Assembly: GCF_964204645.1 (NCBI RefSeq) | Contig: NC_134028.1 | Coordinates: forward strand, 18,359,653 to 18,423,652 | Origin: Tubulanus polymorphus | Lineage: Eukaryota; Animalia; Nemertea | Reading direction: 5' to 3' | DNA: 64,000 bases | Shown here: in pieces, positions 9,010 to 31,747 of the stretch | Numbering within the stretch: position 1 is the first letter of the stretch | Layout of the letters: every line of letters starts with the position of its first letter | The notes under the pieces: generated by a model | The model's input: only the letters and a program-made list of their open reading frames with translations | Databases searched by the model: none | Told to the model about the DNA's origin: nothing | Program-made: the position numbers and the translations under genes

Positions 9010-9038
9010 TCAAATTTTAATAAAAATATGTATTATAA

Positions 9039-9392
9039 ATGGAGAGTAAACAATCGCACAGTGAGAACAACAAATTATTTTTAGATAGAATAAAAGATAC
9101 TTCAAATGTCAAATCAGTAGATTATAAATTTAGGAAGTTAAAAGAATTAATAATCCATAAGAAATATCTAATTACAAATATTGATACAGTTACTAACAAA
9201 TATGGAGATAAATTAGTTATACACTTAGAATATGAAGGATTAAAAGGAAATACATATAAATTCAGAACATATTTACCAGATATATTTCATAGATTATCAA
9301 GTGAAGATCTAGAAGAATTATGTTCTGGAGATTTCTATTTCGTATACAAAGGTAAGAATGAAAAAGGGCGCCATGAAATAGATTTCGAATAA
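9039..9392 (+). CDS. Small viral protein, possibly OB-fold/ssDNA-binding
   Basis: Intact 117 aa with TAAATG start, directly after polB. Beta-rich pattern YLITNI..VTNKYGDKLVIHL..TYLP. Confidence 0.5.
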   Translation: MESKQSHSENNKLFLDRIKDTSNVKSVDYKFRKLKELIIHKKYLITNIDTVTNKYGDKLVIHLEYEGLKGNTYKFRTYLPDIFHRLSSEDLEELCSGDFYFVYKGKNEKGRHEIDFE

Positions 9393-9409
9393 GAAAATAT
9401 GTAAAATAA

Positions 9410-10162
9410 ATGGTAGAATTAAAAGAATACAGAATATTTGTTGATTCTAGAAAACTTACAAATTATAAATCACATAATTTACTAGTTCAATTAGATAGAG
9501 AATTTAAGAATTGTGTTGATTTAAAATTAGTTAATATAAGTTTATGTAATTCTTTTTACAATGTATCGGATAAAAGTCTTGAACATTTATTTATTTCAAT
9601 CAGGAGTAAGAATATATGGAATTATCTATTTTTAAAACCAGGATTATATAATTTAGAATCATTAACGCAAGAAATTAATAAAAAAGCTCGGATCAAATTA
9701 GGTAGTGATGCTGGCTTTAACGTTAGATTTTTGAAAAGTGATAATTCTAATAAAATGAAGATAAGGTTAGCTCATAATGAAAAATATCAATTTTCAGTTA
9801 AAAAACCTGTAGCTAAACTGTTAGGAATTACACCAGATAAACTTAATTCAAATGTTGATACTACACCAAATATAATACCTTACACACATTTCTATATTTA
9901 TTGCAATTTAATTGATCCTACAAAAACATTTGAAGCAACTAAAGATAAAACTTGCAATTCTAGTATACTAAATATTTTACCATTAAAAAATGTTAAACAA
10001 TTTGGAACTGAAATAAATTATAATTTAACAGAATGTGATTTTAAACCTTGCATTCCACATTTCAATAATTTCAAATTAGAAATAAGAAATCATAATGGAT
10101 ATTTAATTGATTTAAATAACTTTCCTGTGATATATGAATTAGTTATAAGATGTAGAGAGTAA
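9410..10162 (+). CDS. Minor capsid (penton-like) protein
   Basis: Intact 250 aa. N-terminal IFVDSR, YIYCNLID and C-terminal LEIRNHNGYLIDLNNFPVIYELVI resemble Polinton/virophage single-jelly-roll pentons. Confidence 0.75.
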   Translation: MVELKEYRIFVDSRKLTNYKSHNLLVQLDREFKNCVDLKLVNISLCNSFYNVSDKSLEHLFISIRSKNIWNYLFLKPGLYNLESLTQEINKKARIKLGSDAGFNVRFLKSDNSNKMKIRLAHNEKYQFSVKKPVAKLLGITPDKLNSNVDTTPNIIPYTHFYIYCNLIDPTKTFEATKDKTCNSSILNILPLKNVKQFGTEINYNLTECDFKPCIPHFNNFKLEIRNHNGYLIDLNNFPVIYELVIRCRE

Positions 10163-10178
10163 TTTTTTCATTATATAA

Positions 10179-10538
10179 ATGAATATAACTGTTGGACCGA
10201 GTATATGTTTTGGGTTTGATTTTAAACATGAGAAAGAAATGAAATTTAACATTAATGATGTAATTACACATATTAAAAATATTGCATTTTCTGATGAAAC
10301 AACATTTGAGTATGAAAAAACAATAGATAAAGAAACTTCAAATGTAGAAAAGATTACTGATTTAATTAGAGAATCTTTAAGATTTTATGAATTAGATGAA
10401 GATTTTATCATAGATGATATTAAAAACATATTAACCAAAATATATGATAATCCTGAAACTAGTAATGAAATAAATGTTGAAATAATTATAAATAAGATAA
10501 CTAAATATTTTGATGATAGTAATTTTTTTGATAAATAA
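10179..10538 (+). CDS. Acidic hypothetical viral protein
   Basis: Intact 119 aa with T6-N7-TAAATG start. Confidence 0.65.
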   Translation: MNITVGPSICFGFDFKHEKEMKFNINDVITHIKNIAFSDETTFEYEKTIDKETSNVEKITDLIRESLRFYELDEDFIIDDIKNILTKIYDNPETSNEINVEIIINKITKYFDDSNFFDK

Positions 10539-10760
10539 ATAAGTGATAATAAGTGGATAATAACTGGATTATATAATGGAGCATTACTATCAGTTGGAAC
10601 TTTTGGTTATTCAATGGTATTAAAAAAAGTATTCAAAATGGGAAGTGTTAATGTTGATAGATTTGATATAAATGATATCTTGAAATTAACATTAGCAGTT
10701 ACTTTATCTAATTTAACTATTGATTATTTGGAAAAACAAAAATATATTCCTCCCATATAA
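10539..10760 (+). pseudogene. Small hydrophobic viral protein with start codon mutated (ATG to ATA); not in ORF track
   Basis: 73 open codons, SDNKWIITGLYNGALLSVGTFGYSMVLKKVF...LEKQKYIPPI. Preceded by T7-N6-TAAATA and fills the intergenic gap. Confidence 0.65.
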
Positions 10761-10784
10761 ATGCGTAATTATTTTACTAAATAA

Positions 10785-11207
10785 ATGGCTTCTGCAATTA
10801 TAACTATTGTAGGATCGGCAATTGTTAACGCTTTAGCATTTACTGGTGGTGGTTATTTATTTAAGCATATTGATAAAAATAGTTCATTAGGAGAACAAAG
10901 AAGACGTAACTTAGCATTAGAAAAATACAATAAAGCAGCAGAAGAATATAGAGAAAAGAGGCAAAACTATATGGATTATATTAACAAGGAATTATATGAT
11001 CAGAAGATTTCACATAGAGATTTTCAATCAGTCGATGATGCAATGAGTTTATATAACGCAGTAACTAATAAAGAAAAATTACATCTATACAAACCTAAAT
11101 TATCAGATTATTATACCCCAAGTAAAGAACAAAAGAAATATGAAATAATATGGATTTTAGGTGGAACTGTGATCGTTATATTTGTAGCATATAGATTTAC
11201 TAATTAG
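10785..11207 (+). CDS. Viral membrane protein (hydrophobic N- and C-termini)
   Basis: 140 aa: MASAIITIVGSAIVNALAFTGGG, a charged helical middle, and IIWILGGTVIVIFVAY. Confidence 0.7.
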   Translation: MASAIITIVGSAIVNALAFTGGGYLFKHIDKNSSLGEQRRRNLALEKYNKAAEEYREKRQNYMDYINKELYDQKISHRDFQSVDDAMSLYNAVTNKEKLHLYKPKLSDYYTPSKEQKKYEIIWILGGTVIVIFVAYRFTN

Positions 11208-11227
11208 TAATTTTTTTTGCTAAATAA

Positions 11228-11653
11228 ATGGATGATAATATTGATATTATTCCTCATGATATAAATAAAACTAAATTAAAAATATATTTAGAAAAACAAA
11301 TATTAGAATTTGAAAATGATTTAAAAGTTAAAAAGAAAAAATATTTAAAATCTAAAATTATATATTATTTGATTATAAGTGGTTCGGTTACAATTAGGTC
11401 TGTAATAACATTTTTAGCAATATTCAGTCCATTAACACCTTTAGCTATATCAATTGGCGTACTAGGATTAAGTTCAAGTGTTTTAACTGGTATAAGTTCA
11501 AAATTAAATATAAAAAGTAATAAAGAAAAAATTAAAACTAATATTAAAGAAATCAATAAATTAAAAAATACACTAGATTATATAATAAGTTTAAATGGCC
11601 ATATAACTGTTGAAGAACAAGATAAATTATTAAAAGAATTAGTTAATTATTAA
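11228..11653 (+). CDS. Viral two-TM membrane protein
   Basis: 141 aa with a central hydrophobic hairpin flanked by Lys-rich helices; T8-N6-TAAATG start. Confidence 0.7.
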   Translation: MDDNIDIIPHDINKTKLKIYLEKQILEFENDLKVKKKKYLKSKIIYYLIISGSVTIRSVITFLAIFSPLTPLAISIGVLGLSSSVLTGISSKLNIKSNKEKIKTNIKEINKLKNTLDYIISLNGHITVEEQDKLLKELVNY

Positions 11654-11669
11654 TTTTTTAATTATATAA

Positions 11670-13058
11670 ATGGCAGATAGTTTTCCAAAAGCTTTCCAAT
11701 ATAATAAATCAATTAAATATAATATTCCTGCAATAGATTTTAATAAAGATATTACATATAGAAATGAAGTTTTAGATTCATTAACTAATTTAGAAATTTA
11801 TGTTACTGAAACTTATAATTTTAATGCAAAGATGGAAAATATATTTCATGTATATTTAAATAATTTTAAAAAATTGAAAGATGAAAAACAATAGTTATTA
11901 AAATCTAATATGAAGTATTGGCAGAACCAATTAAATTTTGCTGTTTATTGCGCTACAACAGGATGTGGAATAAGTTGGAATGATCATTTGAATAATTTTA
12001 AATATAAATTAATTCAAAGTTTATTTAGATTTCATACATACTTTCAAATCAGAATAATATTAAATGAATTAGAGTGTGCTTTACCAGGATCTAGATATTT
12101 TAAAGAATTAGATAATATTATTAATTTATCAAAGTTTTATAAAATTTGCAATGAATTTAATATAGATATAAATAATTCTAATTTTAGAACAAAAATTGGA
12201 ACAATAAGATCACTTCCTTGCCCTGAAAATATTTTACAATATTGTACACTTCCCATACCATCTAATAGCTTTTATAATATCTATAATAATAAATTAGGTT
12301 ATGGTAAAATAGAAACAAAGGATTTAGAAACATTAAATTTCAATAAATTACCGAAATTTTATGATCATTTAAAACAAGAAAACAATAATGCTTGGGTTTA
12401 TTTCATTTTAGAAAATAATGAAGGTTTTACAAAATCAGGTATACAAAGAATAAATCAATCTATTAGAACTTATTTGATATGTATTCTAGGATCACAGGTT
12501 GAAACAAGATCCCCAATAATTGGAAATTTAAATACATCATTTGATACACAGAAACAATTAAAAGTATTATTTGAAGATTCCATTCATAATGATAAAAATA
12601 GATCGATTCCAGAAAACATTGTAAGATATCAAAATTATTTAGATAAATCACATATTAGATTAAATTATTGTATAGGCCCTAATCTATTAATTATTTCTAA
12701 TGATTTAGTATTAAAGATGGGAAATATAATTGGTTATAATAATCTAATTAAAACTGCAACAATAAATAATTCATTTGGATTAAATGATATAAATAAAAAG
12801 ATTATTACTGCTCCAAAATTAATGGAAGGTGAAAAAAATAAAAAACACATTCAATCAACAGAAACTAAAACTAAGAATATTAAATTAAATAATGATTCTA
12901 AAATAAAAGATTACAATACATCAGAAGATATAAAAACTGATAATATTCAACATGATATAATTAAACTAAATGATGATAATAAATCCCATGAAAATACTAA
13001 ATTAGCTATAACTTGTATAGGAATTGTAATCGGAGGAATATTATATTTTAAATTTTAA
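11670..13058 (+). pseudogene. About 460-aa viral protein with C-terminal TM anchor; one premature stop
   Basis: ORFs 11670 and 11910 are in the same frame, split by TAG at 11892-11894. Contains YWQNQLNFAVYCATTGCGISW and ends LAITCIGIVIGGILYFKF. Confidence 0.7.
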
Positions 13059-13074
13059 TTTTTTTATTATGTAA

Positions 13075-14509
13075 ATGGATGTAGAAGGTGGAGAAGATAT
13101 TGGAATGGATAATTTTGATGAACCTGGCATAACTGATGAACAACAACCTAATTTTGATGAAACAAGTTTTAATGACGGTAATGAGCCAGAATATAATAAT
13201 AATTTAAATATGCCTGATTATATTAAAAATGCAGAATCACAATTAAATCCTGAAAATTTAGACCCAGATTTAGTAAAACAAGATTTAGATAATTTAAACA
13301 AAATACCCAAATTAGAACGTATAATTGAAAATTCTAAACTTAACATAAATGATGAAGACGTTGGACCTTTAGCAGATCAATTAAAATTTTTAGATAATGG
13401 TAAATGGTATTATCATTTGAAAGATGATTATTATATTGATATCTCTTATAAAAAACAAAACAAAATATTAACAAAATCAACTTTGAGTAATTTAGATCCA
13501 GATAGAATTAAAAGAATTAGTAATAGTAATGTAATAACTGATGTTATAAAACAAGAATTAACTGGTAATGATATAGACGTATTTAAACAAAGAATTAATG
13601 AATTATTTGAAATAATCAAAAAGAAATCAGAAACAGAAACAACTTCTGAACAGAATATAACTTCCAAAACTAGTAAACTTAAATCAAATAAAGTTCCAAT
13701 TGAAAAACTTTTACCGAATGGATTAATTGATGCAACAGATCAACAATTAGAAGATTCAGATATATTTTCTGATGAAGCAATTAGAGAAATTATTAGTATA
13801 AGAAATGAAGCTGATAAAATTGCACATAATAAAAGTATAAGAGATCAAAAAATTATGTATTTGGAGAAAGAATTAACTAATGCAAATAAAGAAATAGAAC
13901 AACTAAAGTCTGATTTAGATCATCAAGTAATTGATGAAATAGAATATAGGCAAAAAGAATTACGTTTAGAAAAAGAAATTAATAATTTAAAAGATAATTT
14001 AGAAGTACAGAAAGAAGAAATTAAATTATTATTAAAATCATATGATTATAATATTAATAGATTAAAAGTTATTATTTAAAAATTTGTTGATAAAACCAAA
14101 TTCTGAAATATCATTAAAAGATAGAATAAAGTTATTATTTAAATTAGAAGGAATAACAATTCTTTCAATTCTAACAGCTGTAACTATGTTATTTACAACA
14201 ATTGGTTTAGCAATATCAAATTCTTTGAATTCTACTCCTACTCCCAATAAACCGGATAAACCCCCGAATGATAATAATTCTATACAAGATAAAGTTAAGG
14301 ATGGTTTAAAGAAATTAGCAAAATATTTATGGGAACTATCTAAAAAATCTGCTGCAGCATTGCCAGGAGTTATTGCATCAATTGTTGGTTTTATATTGAA
14401 ATCTGCAGGAAACATTATTAACTCTGCTGCTGAACATATTATTTTATTTTTAATTACAGTTGTAAGTGCTATTATTTTTGGGTTAGTAAACATGATAAAA
14501 AATGAATAA
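13075..14509 (+). pseudogene. Coiled-coil plus multi-hydrophobic-helix viral protein; one frameshift
   Basis: Acidic N-terminus and long heptad region, frameshift near 14080, then three hydrophobic or amphipathic segments around a Pro-rich linker. Confidence 0.7.
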
Positions 14510-14529
14510 TTAATTTTTTTGTTAAATAA

Positions 14530-15767
14530 ATGAGTGGGAGTTATATCAATCCTTCTAAGAATCATAGAATATCTAATGCTATTAAAGTAGAAAGATCACA
14601 TCATATAATTACTCATAACCCTTCAAATATTAATCCTGATGAAACTTTATATGTTAGAATTCCTCGATTAACACAAAATACTTTTTATGTTCCAAATAGT
14701 ATTTATTTATCAGCCGATATAAAAGTAATCGGTAATAATAATTATGTTGTTGATAATGTTGGAAGATATTTGATTAAAAAATTAACAATAAAGATTGGCC
14801 CAGAAACAGTTTTCTCATTAAATGATTATAATTTATTTATGCATTATAAAGATTTAAAGAAAATAGAAATAGTATGATATTTCAAGGCATCCAATCAGAA
14901 AACCAAAATAAATTAAGATCAGAAGCGCATAATGCAATATTAACTAATGATATAGATAAATTGATAAAAAGTATATATGGAAGCAAATATAAAATTCCAT
15001 TAGGCTTTGAATTGATAAATAATAATGCACCTTTATATAAATATGCAATTCAAGAAGATATTATATTAGAAATAACATTTGCTCCTGTAAATGAAATTGT
15101 ATTATCTAGCGTTGTTAAAGATATGGGTTATAAATTATCGAATATATGTTTAGAGTATGACACAGTAACTAATGAAAATATTTCAAGTATAATTCAAACT
15201 AAATACAATCAAGGATTTTCATTATTATATGATTATATTGATAAATTTAAAACTGTAACTATTAATGCAAATGATGAAATTATTAATGAGAATATTAACT
15301 TCCCAAGAAGATCTATTAAAGGTATATTAATATTTTTTACAATTGCAACATATACTAATGGTGCAATACAGGTTGATAATTATTATAATCCTGAAATAAC
15401 AAAAGTAGAAATAACTATCGAAGGAATAGCAAATAAAATATTTTGTCAAGGAATGAGAATGATAGATCAATGGCCAGAAATTAGAAAACATTTTATGAAT
15501 GAAAAAGTGAAATCATCTGAAAATTGTAATATTAATCAAATTGATTATTATACCGGTAATATATGCATTATGGTTAGATTTTAGAACAACAGAGGATAAT
15601 TCATTACATGGTTCTGGAAAAAAACTACAGAACACTAAAGATGGAATACAATTATTCATGACAAAGAATTAAGGAATCAAAAATTTTAAATTAAAAATCA
15701 CATTTATATTATATCTGACGCGCAATTAAATATTGTAAATTCTCAATTAAATAGTGTTATGTATTAG
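14530..15767 (+). pseudogene. Putative divergent double-jelly-roll major capsid protein
   Basis: Three frame pieces totalling about 410 aa, beta-strand rich (TLYVRIP, LTIKIG, ILEITF, VEITIEG, YALWLDFR, DAQLNI). Size and position fit a capsid gene. Confidence 0.62.
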
Positions 15768-16253
15768 AATTTTAACTTAAATAAAAATTTATATAATAAA
15801 TGGAAGGAGGTAAAGTTTATAAACATATTCCATACATCGATACACATGAAAATAATGATGGTTTATATTATGTAATACCTTGTAATATAGCTTTGATATT
15901 TGATCCTATTTTCTAAATTTATAAAACTAAACTAATAGAAATCGATAATAATAAAAGTAGTGTTGTTGATAATTCAAGTAATGTAATTGATAATAATAAT
16001 GTAATACCTTCTACATCTAATAATGTAATAGCTTCTACATCTAATAATGCAATACCTGTTTCGAAAGTTCGGTTACTAAGCCGCTCATCTGGTTTGTGTT
16101 TATATATTTACTGTGGATGACATCTTGTTTATGTTTATTCTCCATCTATGTGAAATAAAATCAGTCACTTCCAAGGTTTCGTAGTAACCAGACGTGTTGC
16201 TTCTTTCTCTCGGATCTGTCCCCTCTGGTCGAATCGAACCTTTCACGACATTT

Positions 16254-16271
16254 TGGTGCCGTGACCAGGAT
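16254..16271 (+). other. Primer binding site, tRNA-His-like
   Basis: TGGTGCCGTGACCAGGAT lies 3 nt after the 5' LTR and resembles the canonical His PBS TGGTGCCGTGACTCGGAT. Confidence 0.8.
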
Positions 16272-19200
16272 GGGGTCAGAAGGAAGGCTAACGGCAATCA
16301 GAAGGGCCCAACGGGGCCAAATGACGAAGATTTTCGGAAAAACGGAAGAAAAACTAGCAGAGATTCTACTCGTCGATGAAAGTTCAAGAACTCTGGAAAC
16401 TGTTCAACCGTTCTCCACTTTAATCGACGCGCTGTTCACAAAATTCGAATATTTACGACAATTAGACCAACAATTAATGGATGAAATCGTTGATGAAACC
16501 GAGTTAACTAACACTATAGTTGAATCAGATGATTATCTCACTGAGATACAAATCAAACTCGGTCGATTCAAACTGAACTTGGATAATCTACTAGCGAAGA
16601 TACCAAAACCACAATCGCTAAACGAATCTGTAAGTACCATCAATCGAAGCAGTACTACCTCAACCGGCAGTAAAAAAGTCAATCTACCAAAATTGGCTCT
16701 CCCAAATTTCGATGGTGACATTTTGAAATGGTCTACTTTCTACGATAATTTCATCTCAGCCGTCGATAGCGATCCGCATTTGGACGATATCCAGAAGTTT
16801 CAATATTTGGTCGCACAACTCACTGACGAAGCAGCGCGTACCATAGAAGGTCTGCAAATAACTAGCGCTAACTACAAAGAAGCTCTGACGATCTTAGTAG
16901 AAAGATACGGTCAACCTCACAAGATCGTGAACGCGTACATCAGAGCTTTATTAGATTTGCAGCCACCGCAGGATCACGAGAGTCTACGCGAATTTTACGA
17001 TTCTTTGGAAACATATATTCGAGGATTGCGCGCGCTCGGGAAATCGGAAGATGCGTTCGGTGACATACTCGTTCCGGTAGTCTTCGATAAGCTACCGAGT
17101 CCCGTCAGAACACAAATTTCACGGGAGCACGGAGACCGCGCCTGGACACTTAAAGAACTACGCGACGCGATCCGAAAGGAAATACAAGCTACACAGGCAG
17201 GAGCGAGCTGCGTCAACTTCGATAATGAAAAATTATCCGCTCTTCATATAAGCACTAAAACGAGGAAAAATCCGGCCTCGAAAAACAACAGTTGCGCGTT
17301 CTGCAAGGGTCCACATACGGCGTTCTCATGCGATATAATCGTTAACCCAAAAAAGCGACAAGACATCATAAAGGCAAATCGTAAGTGTTATAACTGTTTT
17401 GGCAATCACATGGTAACAGCTTGCCAATCGAAATATCGTTGTAAGGTTTGCAAAGGCAAACACCACACTGCTATTCATATAGATCGAAATACTGATACGC
17501 ATATTGAATCAAAAAATATTCATGTCAATATAGCTCCAACTTCAAGTCCTGTTCTCTTGAAATCGGCTATTGGTCAAATAAATTATGGTTCGAATTCGAC
17601 CACGGTAAATATCTTGTTTGACGAAGGAGCGCAGTGCTCATTCATCACTAAAAAGTCGGTAAATGAATTAGGTGTCCGATTGGACAAATTTGAAAAGCAA
17701 GATGTAAATATTTCCACCTTTGGTGACAATTCGCCTGGGGCACGTACTCTACGGAGTATAGATTTAAAACTTCGTACGCGTAAAGGCGAAATTGGTTTAC
17801 GTGCATTAGTTGTACCGGAAATATGTCCACCAATTCAGAACAATGTAAAACTTGCTGTGACAAATCACCCGTACCTTCGAAATTTACCATTAGCACCGTA
17901 CGTCAACACCAGCAATTATGAAATTAATCTATTAATCGGTGCTGATTATTACTGGTCGATCGTAGAGAATGAAGTGGTTAGAGGAGCTGGCCCGACAGCT
18001 GTCAGTTCCAAACTCGGGTTCCTTCTATCAGGACCCATCAATTTGAATGCGAATACATCGGTACTCCATACTACCTGTCTTTTGAATACTATACATTCAA
18101 ACGATGAATTCTCAAAATTATCTAACTACTGGGATCTTGAAGTAATTGGCATCAAGGAAACGATTAAATCTGAAACAATGAATTTTGAAACGTATCGAGA
18201 CAATTACCTTAAACGCGATACCAGTGGTAAATATATAGCGAATTTACCTTGGAAAGAAGATTATCCACCGCTCCCTACCAATTTTGATATTTGTACCGCT
18301 AGAACTAGATCTATGGTTAAACGCTTGTCTCCAGAACTGAGGCAGAAATATAATGCGATAATAGCAGAGCAACTTTCACGCGAATTTATTGAGATAGTAG
18401 AAAATGATGACAAGAGCCAGGGCCATTACATACCGCACCACTCGGTTAAAAAGGAATCAATCACAACACCGATTAGAATTGTTTATGATTGTAGTTGTAA
18501 ACAAGGGGATAATCCTAGTTTGAACGACTGTCTGGAAAGCGGTCCTTCATTAATAAATGATCTTGTGCAGATATTAATCCGCTTTCGCACGAATAACGTC
18601 GCATTTACAAGTGATATTGAAAAGGCATTTTTAAATGTAAAACTCGGTGAAAACGATAGAAATTTCACAAAATTTCTATGGCTATCAGATCCTACGGATC
18701 CCGATAGTCCCTTCAAGGTCTATCGTTTCAAATCAGTACTTTTCGGGTCCACTAGCTCACCATTCATCTTAAATTCTGTAGTGAAAACGCATCTACAGTC
18801 CGAAAATACAGAAATCTCAATCGATATGCAATCAAACATATACGTCGATAACGTTCTCAGTGGCTCTCATAACGCTAAAAAAGCAATTGAATATTTTGAA
18901 GAAGCCACGAATACTATGAGCAGGGGTGGATTTATTTTGAGATCATGGGCTACAAACGACCCAGAACTAAGATCGTTGATAAAACAACAGGCAATGGGTG
19001 AGAATGATGAAATCGTCAATGTCGTAGGGTTACAATGGGATACGATTAGTGATACTCTTCAGTTTTCAAAGGCCATAAAAGACCCAGCTATGTGCACTCA
19101 GTCTGTGGTATCTAAGCGGGAAGTTGTGAGCGTAACAGCGTCACTATTTCACCCCCTTGGTCTCCTCTCGCCTGTGCATATTCAAGCTAAAATGTTTATC

Positions 19201-21597
19201 CAGAAATTGTGGCAATCTAAACAAACTTGGGATGAACCCTTATCTGATGAATTATCATCACTCTGGTTTGAAATACATCAGCAGTTATACGCCTGTCAAC
19301 ATACAGCTATACAAAGACCATATTTTGGTCAACCGACTAGTGAATGTGAACTACACATTTTTGCTGATGCCAGTCCCAATGCTTATGGGGCTGTAGCTTA
19401 TCTGAAAACTGACAAATCGACTTCAATCATTATGGCAAAATCACGGGTTAAACCATTAAAAGAGGTTACTATCCCTAGACTTGAATTATTGGCAGCACTG
19501 ATCGCTGCACGGCTCGCGAAATTTATCCGTGATGCATTCGACAAGTCAAATTTAAGTTTAACAAAATGTGTTCTTTGGTCCGATAGTCAGATCACAATAC
19601 ATTGGATTCGGAGTGAGAAGAAATTACCCACATTCGTCGAAAACAGAGTCCGTGAAATTCGGTCTGTCAAATTTGACATAATCAATTATTGTCCTACAAA
19701 GGACAACCCTGCTGATCTCTTGACTCGGGGCATCAATACCCAAGACTTGGATAATAGTAGATTATGGTGGTTTGGACCAACTTGGCTGCCTAATGGCGAT
19801 TGGCCAATTGATCGATTGAATAATTCAACTGTACTATATTGTTCAGTAAATAATTCTGAATCGCACTCTCAACAGTGTGCAGAATTAGCTAGTACTAATT
19901 CTATCTCAGTTCTATCAACCACCGCAACTCCATCAGAACCGTCTGGAATACAAAACGTAATAGATGTCGAGCAATTCAATTCGCTGCATAAATTACTTCG
20001 AGTCACAGCATGTGTACTACGCTTTATTTCTATTATGAAGAAGACATGTCAACCTAGACATAATCATATTACCGTGCCAGAAATACGTTTGGCTCGTACT
20101 ACGTGGGTTCGCTCTTTGCAAGATGACGAATTTTCAAATGAAATTAAATGTATTCAGAAAGGGGGACGAGGTACCCAATTGACTAAACAATTAAACCTAT
20201 TCACTGATAAAGAGGGTTTAATTAGATGTGGCGGTCGTTTTCAAAACGCGAATCTTAACTACAACGCTAAGTACCCAATATTATTGCCATCGAAGCACCC
20301 ATACACAAAATTAGTAATTAGTGACGCCCATAAAATGGTTCTACACAGTGGGTTACAATCAACTTTGTGTTACATACGTCAATCATATTGGATACCAAGA
20401 ATTAGGCAAATAGTTAGCCCAATTATTAGAAAATGCTCAGTTTGCATTAGACATGATGGTAAATCATATCGTGCGCCAATCACGCCTCCGTTACCTGCCT
20501 GTAGACTAAAAGAAGCTCCACCCTTTACCATCACAGGCGTTGATTTCACTGGCCATTTATATTATCGCACGAAACACTCAAAACAGAACAAGGCATACAT
20601 ATGTCTATTTACATGCGCCGTTTCCAGGGCAATACATCTGGAAATAGTCACTGATCTGACGCCTGCTTCCTTTATGAGAGCATTTCGCAGATTTGCCAGC
20701 AGGAGGTCGTTGCCAAGTCAATTGATCTCTGATAATGGTTCAACATTTTTGTCTGCAGAAAACGATATCAAAGAAATATTCAAATCAACAAAAGTCAGAA
20801 ACTTTCTGTCTAACAAACTTGTTACTTGGACATTTATACCGAAACGCGCGCCATGGTTTGGCGGATTTTATGAAAGATTAGTCGGTATAACAAAAAACAC
20901 TTTGAAAAAAGTAGTTGGTCGAGCGTGTATTACCTTGGACGAATTGTCGACTCTAATTACTGAAATAGAGGCTACAATAAACGATCGTCCTCTAACGTAC
21001 ATGACAAATGATGACGATGAGATCATTCCCTTAACTCCATCACATTTAATTTGTGGGAGAATGATTACTCTGTTACCTCAACCGGTAGTTGAAGAAAACG
21101 AACTAATTGATCCGAATTTTAACTTACCGCCCATCGGTTTCTCCGACGCGAAGAAACGCATGAAATACTTAGACAGTCTTTTCCAAGATTACTGGATACG
21201 GTGGCGAAATGAATATTTGCCAACCTTAAGGGAAAACCACTGTCAGACGCTAAAGCGGGGTGGCATTACGGAAAATCATGTCAAAATAGGCGATATAGTG
21301 ATCGTTCATGATGACTCAAAAAAGAGAATCTTTTGGCAACTCGCTATCATTGAAGGTCTGAACAAGGGCTACGACGGTCTTGTGAGATCCGCGGTAATTC
21401 GTACTAAAAGCGGGATTACGAATAGACCCCTTAAAAAATTATACCCCTTAGAAATCAATTCTGATAGTGGCGAGAAAATGAATGATGAATCATCGCCTCT
21501 AATTAGTAATATTCAACCCCCAATGAAAATAAAACGAAATGCAGCATTGAACGCTAGAAATAAAATAAAAAACTGGTGTGACAAACTGGTCGACTAA
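16270..21597 (+). CDS. gag-pol: BEL/Pao gag-pol polyprotein (gag with triple Cys-His knuckles, protease, RT, RNase H, integrase)
   Basis: LPKLALPNFDG; CAFC..H..C / CYNC..H..C / CKVC..HH; LFDEGAQ; DIEKAF; YVDN; FADAS..AYG; GVDFTG; SDNG; PWFGGFYERLV. No stops. Confidence 0.96.
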   Translation: MGSEGRLTAIRRAQRGQMTKIFGKTEEKLAEILLVDESSRTLETVQPFSTLIDALFTKFEYLRQLDQQLMDEIVDETELTNTIVESDDYLTEIQIKLGRFKLNLDNLLAKIPKPQSLNESVSTINRSSTTSTGSKKVNLPKLALPNFDGDILKWSTFYDNFISAVDSDPHLDDIQKFQYLVAQLTDEAARTIEGLQITSANYKEALTILVERYGQPHKIVNAYIRALLDLQPPQDHESLREFYDSLETYIRGLRALGKSEDAFGDILVPVVFDKLPSPVRTQISREHGDRAWTLKELRDAIRKEIQATQAGASCVNFDNEKLSALHISTKTRKNPASKNNSCAFCKGPHTAFSCDIIVNPKKRQDIIKANRKCYNCFGNHMVTACQSKYRCKVCKGKHHTAIHIDRNTDTHIESKNIHVNIAPTSSPVLLKSAIGQINYGSNSTTVNILFDEGAQCSFITKKSVNELGVRLDKFEKQDVNISTFGDNSPGARTLRSIDLKLRTRKGEIGLRALVVPEICPPIQNNVKLAVTNHPYLRNLPLAPYVNTSNYEINLLIGADYYWSIVENEVVRGAGPTAVSSKLGFLLSGPINLNANTSVLHTTCLLNTIHSNDEFSKLSNYWDLEVIGIKETIKSETMNFETYRDNYLKRDTSGKYIANLPWKEDYPPLPTNFDICTARTRSMVKRLSPELRQKYNAIIAEQLSREFIEIVENDDKSQGHYIPHHSVKKESITTPIRIVYDCSCKQGDNPSLNDCLESGPSLINDLVQILIRFRTNNVAFTSDIEKAFLNVKLGENDRNFTKFLWLSDPTDPDSPFKVYRFKSVLFGSTSSPFILNSVVKTHLQSENTEISIDMQSNIYVDNVLSGSHNAKKAIEYFEEATNTMSRGGFILRSWATNDPELRSLIKQQAMGENDEIVNVVGLQWDTISDTLQFSKAIKDPAMCTQSVVSKREVVSVTASLFHPLGLLSPVHIQAKMFIQKLWQSKQTWDEPLSDELSSLWFEIHQQLYACQHTAIQRPYFGQPTSECELHIFADASPNAYGAVAYLKTDKSTSIIMAKSRVKPLKEVTIPRLELLAALIAARLAKFIRDAFDKSNLSLTKCVLWSDSQITIHWIRSEKKLPTFVENRVREIRSVKFDIINYCPTKDNPADLLTRGINTQDLDNSRLWWFGPTWLPNGDWPIDRLNNSTVLYCSVNNSESHSQQCAELASTNSISVLSTTATPSEPSGIQNVIDVEQFNSLHKLLRVTACVLRFISIMKKTCQPRHNHITVPEIRLARTTWVRSLQDDEFSNEIKCIQKGGRGTQLTKQLNLFTDKEGLIRCGGRFQNANLNYNAKYPILLPSKHPYTKLVISDAHKMVLHSGLQSTLCYIRQSYWIPRIRQIVSPIIRKCSVCIRHDGKSYRAPITPPLPACRLKEAPPFTITGVDFTGHLYYRTKHSKQNKAYICLFTCAVSRAIHLEIVTDLTPASFMRAFRRFASRRSLPSQLISDNGSTFLSAENDIKEIFKSTKVRNFLSNKLVTWTFIPKRAPWFGGFYERLVGITKNTLKKVVGRACITLDELSTLITEIEATINDRPLTYMTNDDDEIIPLTPSHLICGRMITLLPQPVVEENELIDPNFNLPPIGFSDAKKRMKYLDSLFQDYWIRWRNEYLPTLRENHCQTLKRGGITENHVKIGDIVIVHDDSKKRIFWQLAIIEGLNKGYDGLVRSAVIRTKSGITNRPLKKLYPLEINSDSGEKMNDESSPLISNIQPPMKIKRNAALNARNKIKNWCDKLVD

Positions 21598-23324
21598 TGC
21601 ACAGGTTCAGCCTAATCAGAGTATAATTCAAACTTATGTTCATAATGTTTCTTAATATGAGTTAATTTCATTTTTGAAGATTTATAATGTTAAGAACATG
21701 TTCTTCTATGTTTTTCAATTATTAAAATGTGTAAATGACGATCACCATAGTATATATGTAAAATTTAATGTTAATTGAAATGTAAGTTGAATCTTAACAG
21801 TGAAAATCATGTATGTATACATTCAAGCACAAATTGTATTAATGTTGAAATACTATGTAATTTCCTTTCTATTATATACCTGAATATATATCGGAGTAAA
21901 TGTTCTTTTTATTTCTGATATTCACATGTTTTTAATTTCAAGAATACGTCAATCAATATTGTAATCTGTTATCTCATAATAATGCTATACAATATCCTAG
22001 TTATCATGTATACACCTATATTTTAGTTGAGACACAACGCAATGTCATAGTTTAACGTCAAAGCTTAATGTCAATGTTTAATGTCAAAGCAATCTCAGTT
22101 TTGTGTTAAATGAAGATTAAGAGTAATGCAAACTTAATGTATCGAAGATTTAGTGATTCTGATATGAAATTGGAAATTGATTAATTTCTCATTTTTTACG
22201 TAGGCTTATTAACCTCATAGGTATTCCTAATAGCACATAGGCATTATACATCCTATTTTTTCTTCCCGCCGCCGGGAGTGTTTCGAAAGTTCGGTTACTA
22301 AGCCGCTCATCTGGTTTGTGTTTATATATTTACTGTGGATGACATCTTGTTTATGTTTATTCTCCATCTATGTGAAATAAAATCAGTCACTTCCAAGGTT
22401 TCGTAGTAACCAGACGTGTTGCTTCTTTCTCTCGGATCTGTCCCCTCTGGTCGAATCGAACCTTTCACGACAATACCTTCTACATCCAATAATGTAATAC
22501 CTACTACATCTAATAATGCAATACCTTCTACATCTAATAATGTAATACCTTCTACATCTAATAATGAAATAATATTAAATATTAGTGAAAATAGAAATTA
22601 TTGTGATTATTGTAAAGGTGAATCAAACGCTTCATCAAATTGGAATAATCATATGAATACAAATTCACATATTATTAATGTAATAGATCGTGTCGGTATA
22701 AGAGAATTTATAGAACACCCATTTAATTATGTTACAAAGTTTGTTTCAAATAAAAAAGTAGATGGTAAAGATTTATATAAAGATTCATTAGGTGAATTTA
22801 TCTAAGGAACGTAGTAATGATAAATTAGATTTATCTGCTGCTAAAAAAATATTAGGATCAAACATTGTAAATGAAATGTTGGAGTCAAACACTAAGAAAG
22901 ATGACAATGAAAATATAGTTACAGATAAGCATATTGATATTAAAGATTCTATGAAACATAAAGTAAAAAATGATGATAAATTTGATTGGATGAATAAGCA
23001 TAACAATGAAACAACTATTGATGATGCGGTAAAAAGGGTGAAGAATAAGTATAAAAATAATAAAGAATTTGAAGAAGAAAATTCGGTAGAGATTTTGAAA
23101 AAATTGATGGGGTATGATAGTGAAAGTGATTAAAATATTAATTGTATTTAACACAAAAATAATATTGGTTGAAAATTGTATAAAATAATAGTAAATAAAA
23201 AAAGGGTTTTTAAATAAATTGGTTGAAAATTGTATGAATAATATTTATTTTAAAAAGGGGGTTTTAAGTATTAATGTATTTAATACGTATTTAATACGTA
23301 TTAGATGGATAGATATATAAATAG

Positions 23325-23926
23325 TTATTTTATAAATTTATATTCATATGGAAATTGAAGCCTCAGTAATAATTTTGAACCTTTATTATTCTTTAATTTA
23401 TTCATATATTCATCATGTAATTCAGTAGGTATAATTTGATTTTCTTCCAATGATTGTTGCATAGATTTTCTATCTTTATTGTAGAATAAAACTATAAATC
23501 TTATATTCTCCCTAAAGTCTTTAACAATTGAATTATATTTTTGATTTAAAACCCATGTTGTTATCCCAAAATGTCTCTCAGAGAAAGCTAAATAACATAA
23601 CTCACTTTCTAATCATGTTAATTAGCGCAATCATCTACAATGAATAATGTATTTGATCCTTTATAAGTATCAATTGCTATTTTAATACAATTATCTAAAT
23701 TTTCTTTTACTGTTTTAGGATCTAATATAATAAACTTCTTTATTTTAACTATATCTCTATTATATGTTTTATTCACTTCATAAGTAGGGCAGAATAATAT
23801 TATATTATCAAAATGATTCTTATAAATAGTTTCTAACAAATCTAATATGAAATGTGTTTTACCACAGTTTCTTACTCCAGTTATTAACATATTATGCGGT
23901 TCAAATATAAATAAATCTTTATTCAT
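23325..23926 (-). pseudogene. A32/FtsK-type genome packaging ATPase
   Basis: Walker A ITGVRNCGKT and Walker B FIVDDC. After a frameshift near 23615: LAFSERHFGITTWVLNQKY..RENI. Confidence 0.88.
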
Positions 23927-25007
23927 TTATTCTTTTAATTTTACTAGATAAAATCCATTCATTAAATTTATCATCATATCCTTTATATTTCACCAAAGAA
24001 TACTTTTTTCCTTTAAGAGTTTTTGTTTTCAATACTTTTTCTATTTTGTATTCTATTTCATCTGGATTTGGTACAAGTGATAATTCTTGTTCATAGAAAT
24101 AACCTAATATTTCTTCATCTTTTACATCTTCTAGTTCATAAACAAATGGTTTAGTTAATATTATCTTTTTAATCTTGAATATTTCTTCAGTAAAATTTAG
24201 GGTATAACCTTTATAAAAGGTTTTTCTATATTTAGATATTCTGACATGTTGCCTAATTTTAAATTTAGGTTCTCCGAAATCATGTGTAACAAACGCTCCA
24301 TATAAATTATTCCAAACTATTTCCGAATTATCTTCTTTTCTAGCTTGTATAGGTTTCATATTTATAGAACGATGTTTAGAATTATTATAACCTTTCACTA
24401 AATCATCTAACACATCGATATATTTATATGTTTCATTAGCAGTAAAATATTTCCACATTCTAGTTTTCAATGTTTTATTAAATCTTTCTATAATAGATGC
24501 TTTTTTATCTGAATGTGTTGAAAAATAATCTTCCTCGTTATCAGATAATAGTTTTTAAAAATGTTTGTTATAAAATTCCTTACCTTCATCAAATTGTATC
24601 TTATCTGGAATAGCTTCTTTAAATATAGATTTAAAAGCATTTGTAACTTCTATACCAGTTGTATTTTTGATTGGAATTGACCATGCGTATCTACTGAATA
24701 TGTCTATAACATTCAGTATCCAGAAATATCCTTTGTTGTATTCCTCTAAGTTCTTCATGTCAATTAAATCAGCTTGCCATTGTTTATCGATATATGAAAC
24801 CATAACTTTTCTTGTTAAATAAGTTTTATCCATTTTCTAATGGATTTGATATGTTGGTTGATTTTGTAACCATGATTTCAATTCACTATATTTTATATCA
24901 CCATTTTCATTATCAGATTTAATTTTATTCCATAATTCTGAAACGTTAGAATATGATACTTCACTTTCTGGGTAATATAACTCTCTTAAATATTGTTCTT
25001 TTTTCAT
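23919..25007 (-). pseudogene. Retroviral-type (rve) integrase with C-terminal chromodomain
   Basis: QWQADLIDM, VIDIFSRYAW, DEGKEF, YNNSKHRSINMKP, chromo YKIEKVL..LVKYKGYDDKFNEWI. Several disruptions. Confidence 0.93.
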
Positions 25008-25014
25008 CTTATTT

Positions 25015-25420
25015 TAATCCATTAATAATAATTTAGATTTAGTTTCAATGACTTTATGATTTGACTTATTTTCTGGTATGATAGGTTTATTATCATTGGA
25101 ATCATCTTTATCATCAGATTTATACTTATATTTATATGTTACACCAGAGAATATAATAATAATTTTGATTTATATATTACACCGGATGATATAATGACTG
25201 TTACTAATCCAATCGTAATATATAATTTATAATTACTTCCAGCATTAGAAGAATTAGATGGATTATTATTTGAATCAATATCAGATAAAGTCTGTGATTC
25301 ATTTATATCAGTTAATTTCTTTTTCTTAGCTTTTTTTAATTCTGCAGATCTTTTACCTAATTCTCTTGCCCATATAATTTGTTTCTCGGATCTAACCTTT
25401 TTCTTAACGCCATCACTCAT
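25015..25420 (-). pseudogene. Basic N-terminal, single-TM viral protein
   Basis: TAAATG start, Lys-rich head and LYITIGLVTVIISSGVIY. An apparent frameshifted tail ends KSKLLLMD. Confidence 0.6.
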
Positions 25421-26015
25421 TTATTTTAGTTAATTTTTGTTCTGATTCATTTTCTGTTTCGCCGTTTGGTTGTAGTACATCTGTTTCGTTCTTACCTGAT
25501 TTATATTCCATAGGCTTGATGTTCGAAAATGTTATGACGCTAGTAGAAATTAATGTCATAACCGATCCTAATTGAAATGAAGCATAACCAACCCATTTTT
25601 GTAATTCAGTCATAACTAAGTAGTCATTTTTCAAATCACTATATAATTTATTTTCATCATCAATTGATATTAACTGGTTACATAACTTAGAATAACATTT
25701 GACAATACCATCTGAAATAGAATAATTTATTCTAGCTAATCTAGCTTCTTCATAAATCTTAAAATATTTTATTACTTTATCGGGTTTCATAGCATCTAAT
25801 TCTTGAAAAGTTATTATTTTTCCCAAGAAATCCTTAGATTTCCCGCCAGCAATTAATAATTCAAGATGATGCTTACAATTTAAGTAGTATTCATAATCAA
25901 TATTGTTATTAACTTGAATAGAATTAGAAACAACTGTTTTTTTATTATCACTAATACCCAAATCATCTTATGTTTTTTCAATATCAATACTATTCTTACT
26001 CGATTTCTTTGACAT
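25413..26015 (-). pseudogene. Hypothetical viral protein (about 200 aa), in-frame stop at codon 16
   Basis: The TAAATG start at 26015 is in frame with the 25961 ORF, and its end overlaps the next start. Confidence 0.6.
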
Positions 26016-26694: not shown

Positions 26695-27670
26695 AGAACA
26701 AGAGCCCCAAGGGGCACAATGGCCAGCCTGTCAGATTTGCTTTTTATAAATGATGTAATCTGTGGGTTATATTTATCAATATACACTCCCTGCTCAATGT
26801 CATTTACATAGTACAATCGTGTGTTAACACAGACAGCAGGAGCGAATGTAATATAGAAATACTAAGTTATTGTATTATTCAACGCCCCTGGTGGCCATAT
26901 ACAAAAACCAATGAGCTTGAAACTCACCAAGATCATAGACCATGTCATGAGCTACAACTTTCCAATTGATTGTGGTAGCAAAATATGCATAGGTACGAAT
27001 GTAATATAGAAATACTAAGTTATTGTATTGTTCAACGCCCCCTGGTGGCCATAAACAAAAACCAATGAGCTTGAAACTCACCTCAATCATAGAACATGTC
27101 ATGAGCTACAACTTTCCAATTAATTATGGTAGCAAAATATGCTTAAGTATCAAAATGATGTGGCTAAACTTTTTTTCCACCTACGAATGAGTACTGATGA
27201 CCCCAAGATGGCCGCCAATTGCGTCATAATTGCCTGGTCAAAAATACCCTCTCAGATATAAAAGATCCTTTTCCAAAGAATACCCATTACAAATTGCAAT
27301 GAAAAATGGCACACCATTAGAAAGCTACAGGACTCAGAATTCAGGCCAAGATTAACATTTTTGGGAACAAAAAAGGTCACAGGACGGCCATCTTGAGTCC
27401 GATCGACCCAATTTTTCTCATGCCGATGGGCCCTTGGGGGATACAAATATATACGAATGATCAAGGTTATTGATAAAAGTGTCTTCAAAATTTCCCTCGA
27501 AAACTTCAAAAATGTGTAAAAAGTGCTGATTTTGGCGAACAACAATGGCTGCCAGTCGGCCATCTTGAATCTAACAGGGCCAGTTTTTGGCCTGAAGATG
27601 TGTCTAGGGTAGATACACGTATAAACCAAATATCAAGACATTACCTTGAAGCGTCTTCAAAACTTTGGAA
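26695..27670. repeat. Host interspersed repeat (Helentron/DINE-like) with a 153-bp tandem pair; related copy at about 48430-48630
   Basis: Units start at 26843 and 26996. Segment 27510-27665 aligns with 48430-48576 (ggccatcttgaatct..cagggcca), which is followed by a GACG/GGAC microsatellite. Confidence 0.6.
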
Positions 27671-29543
27671 CTCTCACGAACTATCTAGATGGTTATCTCT
27701 CGACTCAATAGCTTCAAGACCCATCTCAAAACAACTTTGTTCCATGCAGCATACCATTAACTCTCGGAAAGCGAATTGGATTTAACATTTTTTTTTGGCA
27801 GAATAAAATTTGATTGAATTTGCAATTTGAGCACATGGCTAATTAGCATATCAAGTTCATACACTCGATTTGGGAAAAGCAATTTTTTGCGAACCTTGCG
27901 CAATTGTCAAGGATGAATTTTCTGTAGAGCAAATAAAAATTCCTCCCAAACACCAAATCAACTAAAGATTTCATAGAAATCGATCTTGAAATACGATTTT
28001 AAATCTTAAAATAAAACCCGGAAGTAAAACAATAGACGATACCGCGGGTTCACGTGAACACCTGATTTCTGTAAACGAAACGTTGGTTGTGACAAAATTG
28101 TTCAGACGGTTATAGGTGGTAATTATTACGGAAACGTAACGACCATGGTCGACTTATTCGATGAAATCAGGCCTATGTGATATCCAAATTTTGACTTTTT
28201 TTATTCTCCAGACCTCCCTGATATAGAAATAAAAAATTTTGGTGGTACGAATAGTGCAATCACAGCGCCGACGGCGACAGAGCCGTGTCAGAGATCGGCG
28301 GAGTGAAAATTGCGGAGGTGGACGAACACGAAGAAGTAGGGTATTGAGCTACTTGAATCGCGAAAACTCCTGGCGCGGCCCCGACGCTTTTCGTTGATTA
28401 AGTAGTACAAATATCAAGCAATGGGTTTTCACCACAATCTACCGCCGGTGTTTACCGGATTTCAATATCACTCCAAAATTCAAAGAAACCTCGAAATATC
28501 GAACCGCAACACTTTCGGTAGATATCCGCAGCTGCCCAACCGGGAAACTTATTTGTTGATAGCATCGATAGGATCCATCATCTTCTCCCGTCAAGGGATT
28601 CGAACCCACTAAGCTAAAGCCGTGCCAGAATCGGGTCGAGCCAATCACAGCGCTTGTAACAAACCACATTAGGCTTCTGTGGAATTTCCCTAGTAAATGG
28701 GCCAATCAGCGAACACGTAGCGAACGCGGAAGTATTGTCGCGTGTTGATACATGACGTCATGCGCAAAAGCGCCAGTAATGAAATCACGATAATTCACGT
28801 GAACAGCTGCTGATATTTTTAGATAAACCAATCACAGGGAAGACACAACTTCCTGATTGGCTGATAAAAATTGAAATTTTCCCGATTTTATTTTCGTGAA
28901 AAATGCAGAAAACATTTTTATGAAAGCCTATTTCAAAATTCTGCTCGCTACGATTCCGAGAATGGATTACGCTTAAATACGTGATTTGTTCGAATATGCC
29001 CTCACTTGGCAAGCAAAAGAGCCTTTTGTGTGGAAACCATGTCATTTAAATTCGCTCCATTTGTATAGTAATAGGCTCAGCCTACGGCTGGCCTAATAAA
29101 ACTAACTTGATGTTGTAGTTGTAAAATATTAATTACAACACTTAAACATGGTCATTTGTGGCGCATCTTACCAGGGTAAGTTTTACATGTTTAACGTTTC
29201 CCGACGCCTTAATAACAACAAAAACAAGTACTTACATTTATAACTGTAAACTCCTAAAATTGTGTTTATAGAGAGAATATCCTATGCGTTCCTATGCTTA
29301 TGTGCTGCGCGCTTATAACTGCCAGTTATTCACTAGCTAAACACTGTCTGAGCAATATATGTTCCTTCGTAATGTAATTGATTAATCCTTTTCAACTGAA
29401 ATAGCACATTCGATCAATATTCAAATGAGGTACACCCCATTCAACTGAACATAAAATGCGGCACAGAAGTTTTTGTAAACAACCTAATACAATTACATAT
29501 AGGCGGTTTGACATAGTTTGAGAGTAACCGGTTTTCTAAGCGT

Positions 29544-30197
29544 TTAAGCTTCAACGTATTTTTCATTATTTGTTGAATTCCATAATTCAACAAATGTCTT
29601 TGCTTTATCCAGTTGATCTAAATATAACTGTAAATCTAGTTTATTAGATTTAATTGTGTTTTCCTTCTTTTCTAAAGGTCTTAAATTTCTCCAGCTCCAG
29701 ATTAGCTTCTTATTATGATCATCACTCATGTCAAATTTAGAAATCGGCAACACATGATCAATATGAAAGTATTCACCATAATTATCTATATTAATTTCAT
29801 CGTCGAATTGATATATTATCCATGATATGAAAAATTCATCTGAACAACCCAATAAATTAGATAGTGTTTCTGAATGCGTTTCTTTGTTGAATAATTGTGT
29901 TAATCTAGATCTTAAACATTGTTTCAATCTAAAATTAAGATCTGTTTGATATTTTCCTCTCATATATTCTGCCATATAATAATTATAATGTTCTATATTA
30001 TCTTCTCGATATTGTTTGGTATATAGTTTAGTACAAGTTTTACAGCAATATTGAAAACCATCTTTGCTAATCTTACGCTTACTAAATTCTGTTAAAGCTA
30101 ATTTATCTAATTCACACTTAGAACACTTCTTGTAGTATATATTTATAACACCAGTGTTATTTGTAATATTAATACTTTGTGGTTGTTCTGGCTCCAT
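29544..30197 (-). CDS. HNH-type endonuclease with N-terminal Cys4 zinc ribbon, of the kind common in large DNA viruses
   Basis: Intact 217 aa: KKCSKC..EF...KDG....CKTC; LLGCS; FHIDHVLPISKFD..WRNLRPL..KEN. TAAATG start. Confidence 0.75.
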   Translation of the reverse strand: MEPEQPQSINITNNTGVINIYYKKCSKCELDKLALTEFSKRKISKDGFQYCCKTCTKLYTKQYREDNIEHYNYYMAEYMRGKYQTDLNFRLKQCLRSRLTQLFNKETHSETLSNLLGCSDEFFISWIIYQFDDEINIDNYGEYFHIDHVLPISKFDMSDDHNKKLIWSWRNLRPLEKKENTIKSNKLDLQLYLDQLDKAKTFVELWNSTNNEKYVEA

Positions 30198-31235
30198 TTA
30201 TTATACATATTTTTTTACTAAATTGGTTAATATTTTAGAACCCTCTTCCATTTCTTCGACCAACGACATCCTTTTTCATTCCTCGTTGCTTTTGATAAGT
30301 CGTTTCAATTCCTTGATATCAAAACGCATGCGCACTAGGCAAAACCGCGCATACAGGCGCACTTTTGCTTAATGCGCATGCGTTAATCATAATTGAAACG
30401 ACTGAACATAAAAATTCACCAATCAGATTTACACAATCCATTATACTAGTTGTTCAGTCGTTTCTTCCAATACACCATTTGATTTCTATATATAAAATCT
30501 ATAATTACAAACATTCTTTCAATTTTCAATTGCCGGTAAATATTTAACTACATCAACAAATGTTAAACTTAATCATTGGAGTCTTAATGTTTTTGAAATT
30601 CTTATATAGTTTCTTCGTCGATCTTTTGGTGATTCTTGTGGTTCTACGCCAGTTTCTATTGGTTCGATATCCATTGCTGTTGATTCCTCAGTCAGAAAGA
30701 GTATCTTGAGTTTCTCCATCGCTTTTTGATGTGTATGACGTTTTATTAATCTAAAAGATATCAGCGGTAACTCTAACTATCTAAAAGATATACCTAAAGG
30801 TTTCATATTTAATAGCCCCAATAACTACAAAAAACAGTACTTACATTTAGATTTAGAATTGTAAACTATAAACTCCTAATTGCGTTTCGAGAGAGAATAT
30901 CCTAAGCGTTTTGTTACAGCGTCTATTCAGTTCCGGTGCGATTTCGAAATGAACACGTCGTCGATAATGCCACGTCATCTAGTTCTTAGTTAGTACACCT
31001 TCTAGAATGTTCTACGCGTTTGCAATATTATGTCTCATATGTCTCGGCGTCATAGTAACAGCTGTGACAGCTGTGAATTTAGATTTATTCAATTATTTTG
31101 TAATACCAGCTGTTACACGAGGAGTCGCGCAATATGATTAAACGTTTCTATTAACTGAGAAAATCAATAATAAAGGCAACGTATCTTTATATAGAAATCA
31201 AATTATGTACAACGCCCGAACATACTTGTAAATAT

Positions 31236-31691: not shown

Positions 31692-31747
31692 TTTCTTACT
31701 CACTCGACCCTTCGACCTTTGGTATGAAACAACTAAACCCCTATTAC
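31598..31747. repeat. 150-bp fold-back palindrome
   Basis: 70-bp arms with 4 mismatches around the 10-nt loop GAGTGTGCGA. Confidence 0.92.

Follow-up and report, generated by a model that had tools for sequence, protein, structure and literature searches.

The window analysed here is a 64,000-nucleotide stretch of the nemertean Tubulanus polymorphus genome (contig NC_134028.1, positions 18,359,653 to 18,423,652), and it contains a decayed Polinton/Maverick element of about 27 kb at positions 4921-31747 with two nested insertions inside. We found that 13 of the 15 gene starts of this element read TAAATG, and this start-motif observation is confirmed and extended from the window to a clade of related loci. 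Judging from the sequence pattern, TAAATG together with an upstream T core would, by a narrow balance of probability, be a pox-type post-replicative initiator read by the RNA polymerase (RNAP) of a co-infecting pox-type cytoplasmic virus. Transcription by a viral helper of any kind appears fairly probable.

The start motif in the window and its clade

The TAAATG starts are located at 9039, 9410, 10179, 10785, 11228, 11670, 13075, 14530 and 15800 on the plus strand and at 23926, 25420, 26015 and 30197 on the minus strand. The exceptions are the genes of the protein-primed B-family DNA polymerase (pPolB, TAAAATG) and the integrase (TAAGATG), all as an earlier sequence-only reading of the window had counted them. 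Among the other sense-strand ATGs in the element, TAA precedes 23 of 427 (5.4%), and the enrichment at gene starts over this background has a binomial p of 3e-15. T at position -12 was found in 13/13 TAAATG starts but in 19/38 non-start TAAATG sites, and G at +4 in 8/13 and 4/38, respectively. The T runs and the spacers to TAA that the sequence-only reading gave for six positions are exact: 6 T and a 7-nt spacer at 10179 and 11670, 8 T and 6 nt at 11228, and 7 T and 6 nt at 13075, 14530 and 10539. The last of these had been called a mutated start; its T-run core is present, but the TAA there ends the 10179 gene and a start codon is missing from this copy, while homologues of the 10539 gene in loci L001, L007 and L008 start with TAAATG. 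Plus-strand starts lie 16-29 nt past the upstream stop, and the starts at 23926 and 25420 overlap the upstream open reading frame (ORF) by 8 nt. Early-type AAAANTGAA motifs were rejected as promoters; their positions do not coincide with gene starts.

A capsid-alignment search gave at least 76 metagenome loci, of which 53 yielded one or more core-gene starts. Core genes were set by homology and the start was taken as the first ATG past the upstream stop, a rule which cannot miss TAAATG: with TAA in frame directly ahead of it, such an ATG is necessarily the first. In a quick capsid tree (50 sequences, after removal of 25 short pieces), the window sits in a 14-row clade with SH-aLRT 99, and 99 again in a repeat quick tree. 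TAAATG occurs at 37/43 core-gene starts of this clade (13 relatives, 20-44% GC) versus 5/130 outside it (Fisher p 6e-26; the p values overstate independence, since orthologous genes have a common ancestry and the clade loci include two pairs of near duplicates). Taken one locus at a time, the pattern still holds; the motif of the window is conserved in homologous elements. All five outside starts belong to L029 (3/3) and L044 (2/2); these two loci lie outside the main clade (approximately unbiased (AU) test, p 0.048 and 0.0006), their starts are few, and L044 is without a clear T core. Scanning IMG/VR with individual window proteins or with the capsid protein alignment gave no relatives, and GTDB gave one stray contig.

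When every ORF of 16 loci from the clade or like it is counted, TAAATG is found at 56/64 starts: at 15/16 divergent and 30/36 tandem but separated starts, and at one abutting a stop. The T core is sharp, with T at -12 in 47/50 (94%) and at -13 in 38/50 (76%); it is present in 15/15 divergent motif starts at -12. The usual eukaryotic start context has a purine at -3. The clade has T there in 88% of starts, whereas the position is mostly A (59%) outside the clade, and G stands at +4 in 72% of clade starts. The hexamer at the 56 motif starts is AATAAA in 24, TATAAA in 21 and TTTAAA in 6. Whether a core is of A-run or T-run type follows gene family (permutation p 0.0005); since orthologous promoters have a common origin, we do not count this towards two temporal classes.

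The signal is not limited to one capsid lineage, since L352 (IMG/VR, 9034 nt), which has a different Polinton gene set, carries TAAATG at 7/7 starts, polymerase included. This locus encodes an intact 1253-aa pPolB and a protease-integrase-chromodomain fusion, the N-terminus of which matches S273R of African swine fever virus (ASFV; E 1e-4); its integrase is 42-48% identical to the clade integrase. Four insect-type Polintons (L436-L439) contained TAAATG at 0/46 starts; they had TCAGT, which we take to be the arthropod Pol II initiator, at 12/46 against 1.7 expected, and a TATA excess. Pol II architecture of this kind was also looked for at the clade starts, and neither TCAGT nor an upstream TATA excess was seen.

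Likeness to poxvirus promoters and the source of the polymerase

The vaccinia late consensus is described as TAAAT(G) preceded, ten bases upstream, by a conserved T (PMC11980589, PMC5294985). The clade resembles vaccinia intermediate/late promoters in the TAAAT overlapping ATG, the G at +4, the T core about ten bases upstream, and the presence of both T-run cores and cores with an A run and then T. It differs in the T peak (-12 versus -13) and in the share of genes with TAAATG (about 87% versus about half in vaccinia), and no early-type promoter class was seen in the clade, unlike vaccinia. An orthopoxvirus control stretch had TAAATG at 7/13 ORFs and a T peak at -13 (7/9); the clade peaks at -12, therefore the layouts match within one base. 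Depletion of TTTTTNT is suggestive of a second pox-type signature: clade coding strands contain 10 against 37 expected, the window 2 against 9.6, and T5 runs are followed by NT in 11/61 cases against an expected share of 0.344 (p 0.004); neither the antisense strand nor AT-rich outgroups show this effect. The T runs were also considered as doubling as terminators, and this found no support (15/46 tandem versus 3/15 divergent, p 0.52).

In the window and clade ORFs scanned (Pfam, NCBIfam; 29, 19, 55 and 20 proteins), RNAP, VLTF and capping enzyme gave no match, and several small ORFs stayed unassigned; five orthopoxvirus transcription proteins gave no tblastn match in 82 sequences. Conserved genes of unassigned function also occur in motif-less relatives. 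Considering both, the polymerase is likely supplied from outside the element. In the mechanism we propose, the T core at -13/-12, about 8 nt and then TAAATG would serve as transcription initiator. The transcript would start in the AAA of TAAAT and gain a 5' poly(A) leader by slippage, as occurs in vaccinia and yeast pGKL plasmids (PMC6211774), so that the mRNA would have A at -3, and the DNA might for this reason tolerate the anti-Kozak T. All genes, polymerase included, would be on only during helper infection, like Mavirus with Cafeteria roenbergensis virus (CroV), and between infections copies would persist in the host genome through the integrase. The deoxynucleoside kinase in L001 (10340-10981) and L007 (2895-3380), of which the L001 copy has the motif, would fit a replication that takes place apart from nuclear nucleotide pools; no pox link was found for it.

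Several observations weigh against a pox-type helper. The T core lies one base nearer to the start than in vaccinia, the ninth base being T in 94% and the tenth in 76%, and the orthopoxvirus control peaks at the tenth. Related loci are non-independent samples. Homopolymers are generally scarce in the clade, which weakens the TTTTTNT depletion; the signal is not depleted in L352 (2 versus 2.1) and is somewhat depleted in insect-type elements (1 versus 5.1), enrichment past convergent stops was looked for and not found, and in vaccinia TTTTTNT terminates early mRNAs (PMC6211774). Three IMG/VR motif scans returned, among the matches listed, mostly phages, giant-virus contigs, two orthopoxvirus stretches and L352, and no new pox-like virus; no helper genome was found for this host, and no pox-derived gene in the window or clade loci. 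None of the RNA runs searched covers the element, which speaks neither for nor against its expression. TAAATG also occurs at gene starts of motif-selected non-pox large-virus contigs (L387 9/20, L248 7/22, L326 4/11). Finally, a sister GC-rich clade (L016, L018, L019, L023, L036, L038, L040 and related) has its own motif TTGAA(C) at 28/64 starts versus 3.6 expected, so a helper may not be needed for clade-specific motifs to arise. The sister-clade motifs possibly reflect other helpers or other core promoters. As further upstream motifs, L013 has GTATA, and L017, L021 and L024 often have TAAAA ahead of ATG.

The element is AT-rich (GC about 21-25%), and chance could be thought to create the motif. 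We consider this practically negligible: besides the p value against the element's own ATGs, an AT-matched outgroup had TAAATG at 2/32 starts, clade starts with upstream AT below 80% kept it in 12/13, shuffles gave at most 10 TAAATG starts versus 37 observed, and the motif is kept at 40-44% GC (L006 and L007, 3/4 each) and absent from relatives of 26-30% GC (L017, L021, L024, L030, L034). A post-transcriptional motif, such as stop-start coupling, a poly(A) signal (AATAAA) of the upstream gene, or an in-frame stop guarding the start, is very improbable, although TAA is in frame with ATG by construction and AATAAA stands at 24 of the 56 motif starts. The divergent starts have no upstream co-directional gene, and 15/16 of them carry TAAATG, therefore neither coupling, which the sequence-only reading had already doubted, nor an upstream poly(A) signal explains the motif; only one tandem motif start of 36 abuts an upstream stop, 32/56 are without AATAAA, and TAG and TGA do not substitute for TAA. 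AATAAA past clade stops was not enriched (12 versus 10.9 expected in 44). A splice-acceptor reading was rejected, there being no AG ahead of ATG.

The element could also be nuclear and autonomous, TAAATG being a clade-specific Pol II core promoter, perhaps with an element-encoded factor, and its pox likeness convergent. This is unlikely, with an appreciable share of the probability: an integrase with chromodomain, the many chromosomal copies, the other motifs in sister clades, several conserved genes without assigned function and the TATA-like WATAAA at 21/56 motif starts speak for it. However, with the Pol II spacing of -25 to -30 (PMC5294985), transcripts driven by a TATA box at the start codon would begin within the ORF; the divergent ATGs are just 19-72 nt apart; the TATA or TCAGT excess of insect-type Polintons is absent in the clade; and the unassigned core genes are common to motif-less relatives, and L352, whose gene set is different, has the motif too. 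Quite unlikely, in our estimate, is a helper from the non-pox nucleocytoviruses or an egovirus-like relative with a TAAAT late initiator. The non-pox contigs above, basal egoviruses from marine sediments (10.1101/2024.03.23.586382) and the fact that no poxvirus of this host turned up are consistent with it. But these contigs, although selected by the motif, have no sharp T core (-12 T in 40/72, 55%, versus 94% in the clade), nine motif-selected giant virus metagenome-assembled genome (GVMAG) contigs had TAAATG at 14/99 starts, and the late motifs described for ASFV and pacmanvirus (TATATA) and CroV (TCTA) are different (PMC11788076, PMC5294985). Among the sampled viruses TAAATG is strongest in poxviruses, though not unique to them. 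L248 is a 251-kb IMG/VR contig with a eukaryote-type topoisomerase IB, and the TAAATG starts of L248 and L387 include divergent pairs.

The sequence-only reading had proposed transcription by a pox-type helper. The promoter part of this proposal is supported by enrichment, conservation, GC independence, the divergent starts, the T at -3, the T core, and the absence of detected Pol II signals and RNAP; the pox-type virus as the polymerase source stays inferential. Its further idea of a sleeper or antiviral system is not supported for this copy, which cannot act as a sleeper because most core genes are broken. More tentatively, we might speculate that animal Polinton lineages are tuned to different machineries, some to host Pol II (TCAGT), with this widespread clade and at least one unrelated lineage (L352) as germline-integrating poxvirus virophages. 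This would imply that aquatic invertebrates have pox-like viruses yet to be discovered, and intact copies might be an inducible Mavirus-style antiviral system; the whole picture is possible but rather doubtful.

The motif bears on the expression and spread of Polintons in animals, and we know of no helper for this Polinton group. Vertebrate Maverick particles are described as unobserved so far (PMC8097293). We found no publication that describes a TAAAT-type promoter for Polintons, in searches that reached neither most subscription papers nor any supplements. A promoter motif that predicts the helper makes helper dependence simply testable. If the pox-type reading is true, the virophage lifestyle would extend from protists to integrated animal elements, and unseen pox-like viruses could be inferred from host genomes.

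Structure and genes of the window copy

The Polinton nature proposed by the sequence-only reading was borne out by pPolB, rve integrase, a major capsid protein (MCP) with double jelly roll, A32 ATPase and terminal inverted repeats (TIRs), but its extent of 9020-30220 was too short. Polinton/Maverick elements are characterized by a 6-bp target-site duplication; in this copy the left end is cut short within the terminal palindrome. The features of the element are as follows.

4921-5376, plus strand: left TIR, 456 nt, 95% complementary to 31236-31691, truncated within the terminal palindrome
5095-9009, plus strand: pPolB gene, broken in at least four frames, start TAAAATG
9039-9392, plus strand: 117-aa ORF of unassigned function, TAAATG start with A-run-type core, homologue in L001
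9410-10162, plus strand: 250-aa ORF, candidate minor capsid protein, TAAATG start, family in 13 loci
10179-10538, plus strand: 119-aa ORF, TAAATG start with T-run core
10539-10760, plus strand: conserved small gene of 73 codons, start codon absent in this copy, T-run core upstream, family in 16 loci
10785-11207, plus strand: conserved 140-aa gene with hydrophobic N-terminus, TAAATG start, found in 21 loci
11228-11653, plus strand: 141-aa ORF of two-transmembrane type, TAAATG start with 8-T core, weak SLATT-like matches below cut-off
11670-13058, plus strand: conserved core gene (about 440 aa in relatives), broken in two frames, TAAATG start
13075-14509, plus strand: conserved coiled-coil/hydrophobic core gene (about 450-485 aa in relatives), broken in two frames, TAAATG start
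14530-15669, plus strand: MCP gene, broken, TAAATG start with T-run core, 72% identical to the intact relative P0001
15800-23133, plus strand: clade-specific gene (about 410-430 aa) containing a 24-nt tandem repeat, TAAATG start, interrupted by the BEL/Pao insertion
16057-22472, plus strand: nested BEL/Pao long terminal repeat (LTR) retrotransposon, 194-nt LTRs 100% identical, intact 1775-aa ORF at 16270-21597
23325-23926, minus strand: A32-like packaging ATPase gene, broken, Pox_A32 E 7e-6, TAAATG start within the end of the integrase ORF
23919-25007, minus strand: retroviral-type integrase gene with chromodomain, broken, rve E 2e-7, Chromo E 4e-5, start TAAGATG
25028-25420, minus strand: small gene, 93 aa open here and about 130 in relatives, TAAATG start, lower end approximate
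25413-26015, minus strand: conserved core gene (about 210 aa in clade members), broken, TAAATG start
26696-29095, no strand assigned: inserted high-copy host repeat, other element copies being without the insertion
29544-30197, minus strand: 217-aa zinc-ribbon/HNH-like accessory ORF, TAAATG start, L003 homologue with HNH E 0.0055, below cut-off
31236-31747, minus strand: right TIR, which includes an incomplete copy of the pPolB start and has a palindrome of about 150 nt at its end

Broken genes in this copy include pPolB, MCP, ATPase, integrase and two further core genes. The domains detected in pPolB are zf-C2H2, Endonuclease_7 (E 1e-5) and DNA_pol_B_2 (E 6e-9). The intact MCP relative P0001 was modelled as a double jelly roll (pLDDT 82), and Foldseek matched the model to the MCPs of iridovirus and Paramecium bursaria chlorella virus 1 (PBCV-1; E 1e-14, TM score about 0.6). 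The 9410 ORF is likely the minor capsid protein from its size and family conservation, and is weakly linked through L013 to a penton-sized ORF of L437 and L438. The predicted fold of the approximately 440-aa core protein (pLDDT 65) matched no known fold, PDB sequence searches with three genes without assigned function gave no match, and an Atlas search of two proteins gave no match for one and unnamed viral clusters for the other. A Ulp1/adenain protease is typical of Polintons, though their definition by pPolB and integrase does not require it. Two Polinton proteases of this type gave no tblastn match in the window and 76 related loci (E 0.5), a search that could still miss a remote homologue.

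The right end (31598-31747) forms a near-perfect terminal hairpin with 70-bp arms (-68 kcal/mol as DNA); the left end breaks inside the hairpin, beside degenerate TTAGGG-like repeats at about 4885-4920. The BEL/Pao retrotransposon is young and was inserted into the 24-nt tandem repeat of the Polinton gene. In a DNA run with the same species label, 146 reads skipped 2398 nt at the host repeat, where depth was 1,900-6,000; the element had a depth of about 500-600 versus 6-11 in the lowest flank bins, from which the host would have, very roughly, 50-100 related copies. The flanks contain LINE, LTR and transposase-like fragments as judged by eye, and an LTR retrotransposon, Gypsy-like by eye, was found at 54097-61471; its 300-nt LTR segments are identical, and its pol contains in-frame stops.

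Comparison with known systems

The window element shares with described Polintons/Mavericks (adintoviruses; PMC8502044, PMC11161782, PMC11131425) the pPolB, rve integrase, double-jelly-roll MCP, A32 ATPase, TIRs and many decayed chromosomal copies. It differs in that its clade starts genes at a pox-type motif and that no separate adenain-type protease was detected in the clade group; the word "promoter" is absent from the main texts of PMC8502044 and PMC11131425. The Polinton-like viruses (PLVs) linked to entomopoxviruses (PMC11296320) are likewise Polinton-like elements tied to poxviruses in animals, but by their description they are found in occlusion bodies, a protease is present, and at least two are without integrase. 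The main text of that paper, supplements aside, has no mention of promoter, motif or transcription.

The yeast cytoplasmic linear plasmids pGKL1/2 (PMC6211774) are similar in pPolB, TIRs, a TAAAN initiator and 5' poly(A) leaders made by slippage. However, pGKL2 has its own RNAP and capping enzyme and no capsid, whereas the window element has no detected RNAP and carries a capsid module and an integrase. Mavirus and the endogenous mavirus-like elements (EMALEs) of Cafeteria differ in their protist host, Imitervirales helper, TCTA motif and virophage capsid, and helper dependence is experimentally shown there and proposed here. They are alike in being integrating pPolB/rve elements (PMC8547959), and their types carry distinct promoter motifs matching the late promoter of the helper (PMC8547959; 10.1101/2025.10.09.676808).

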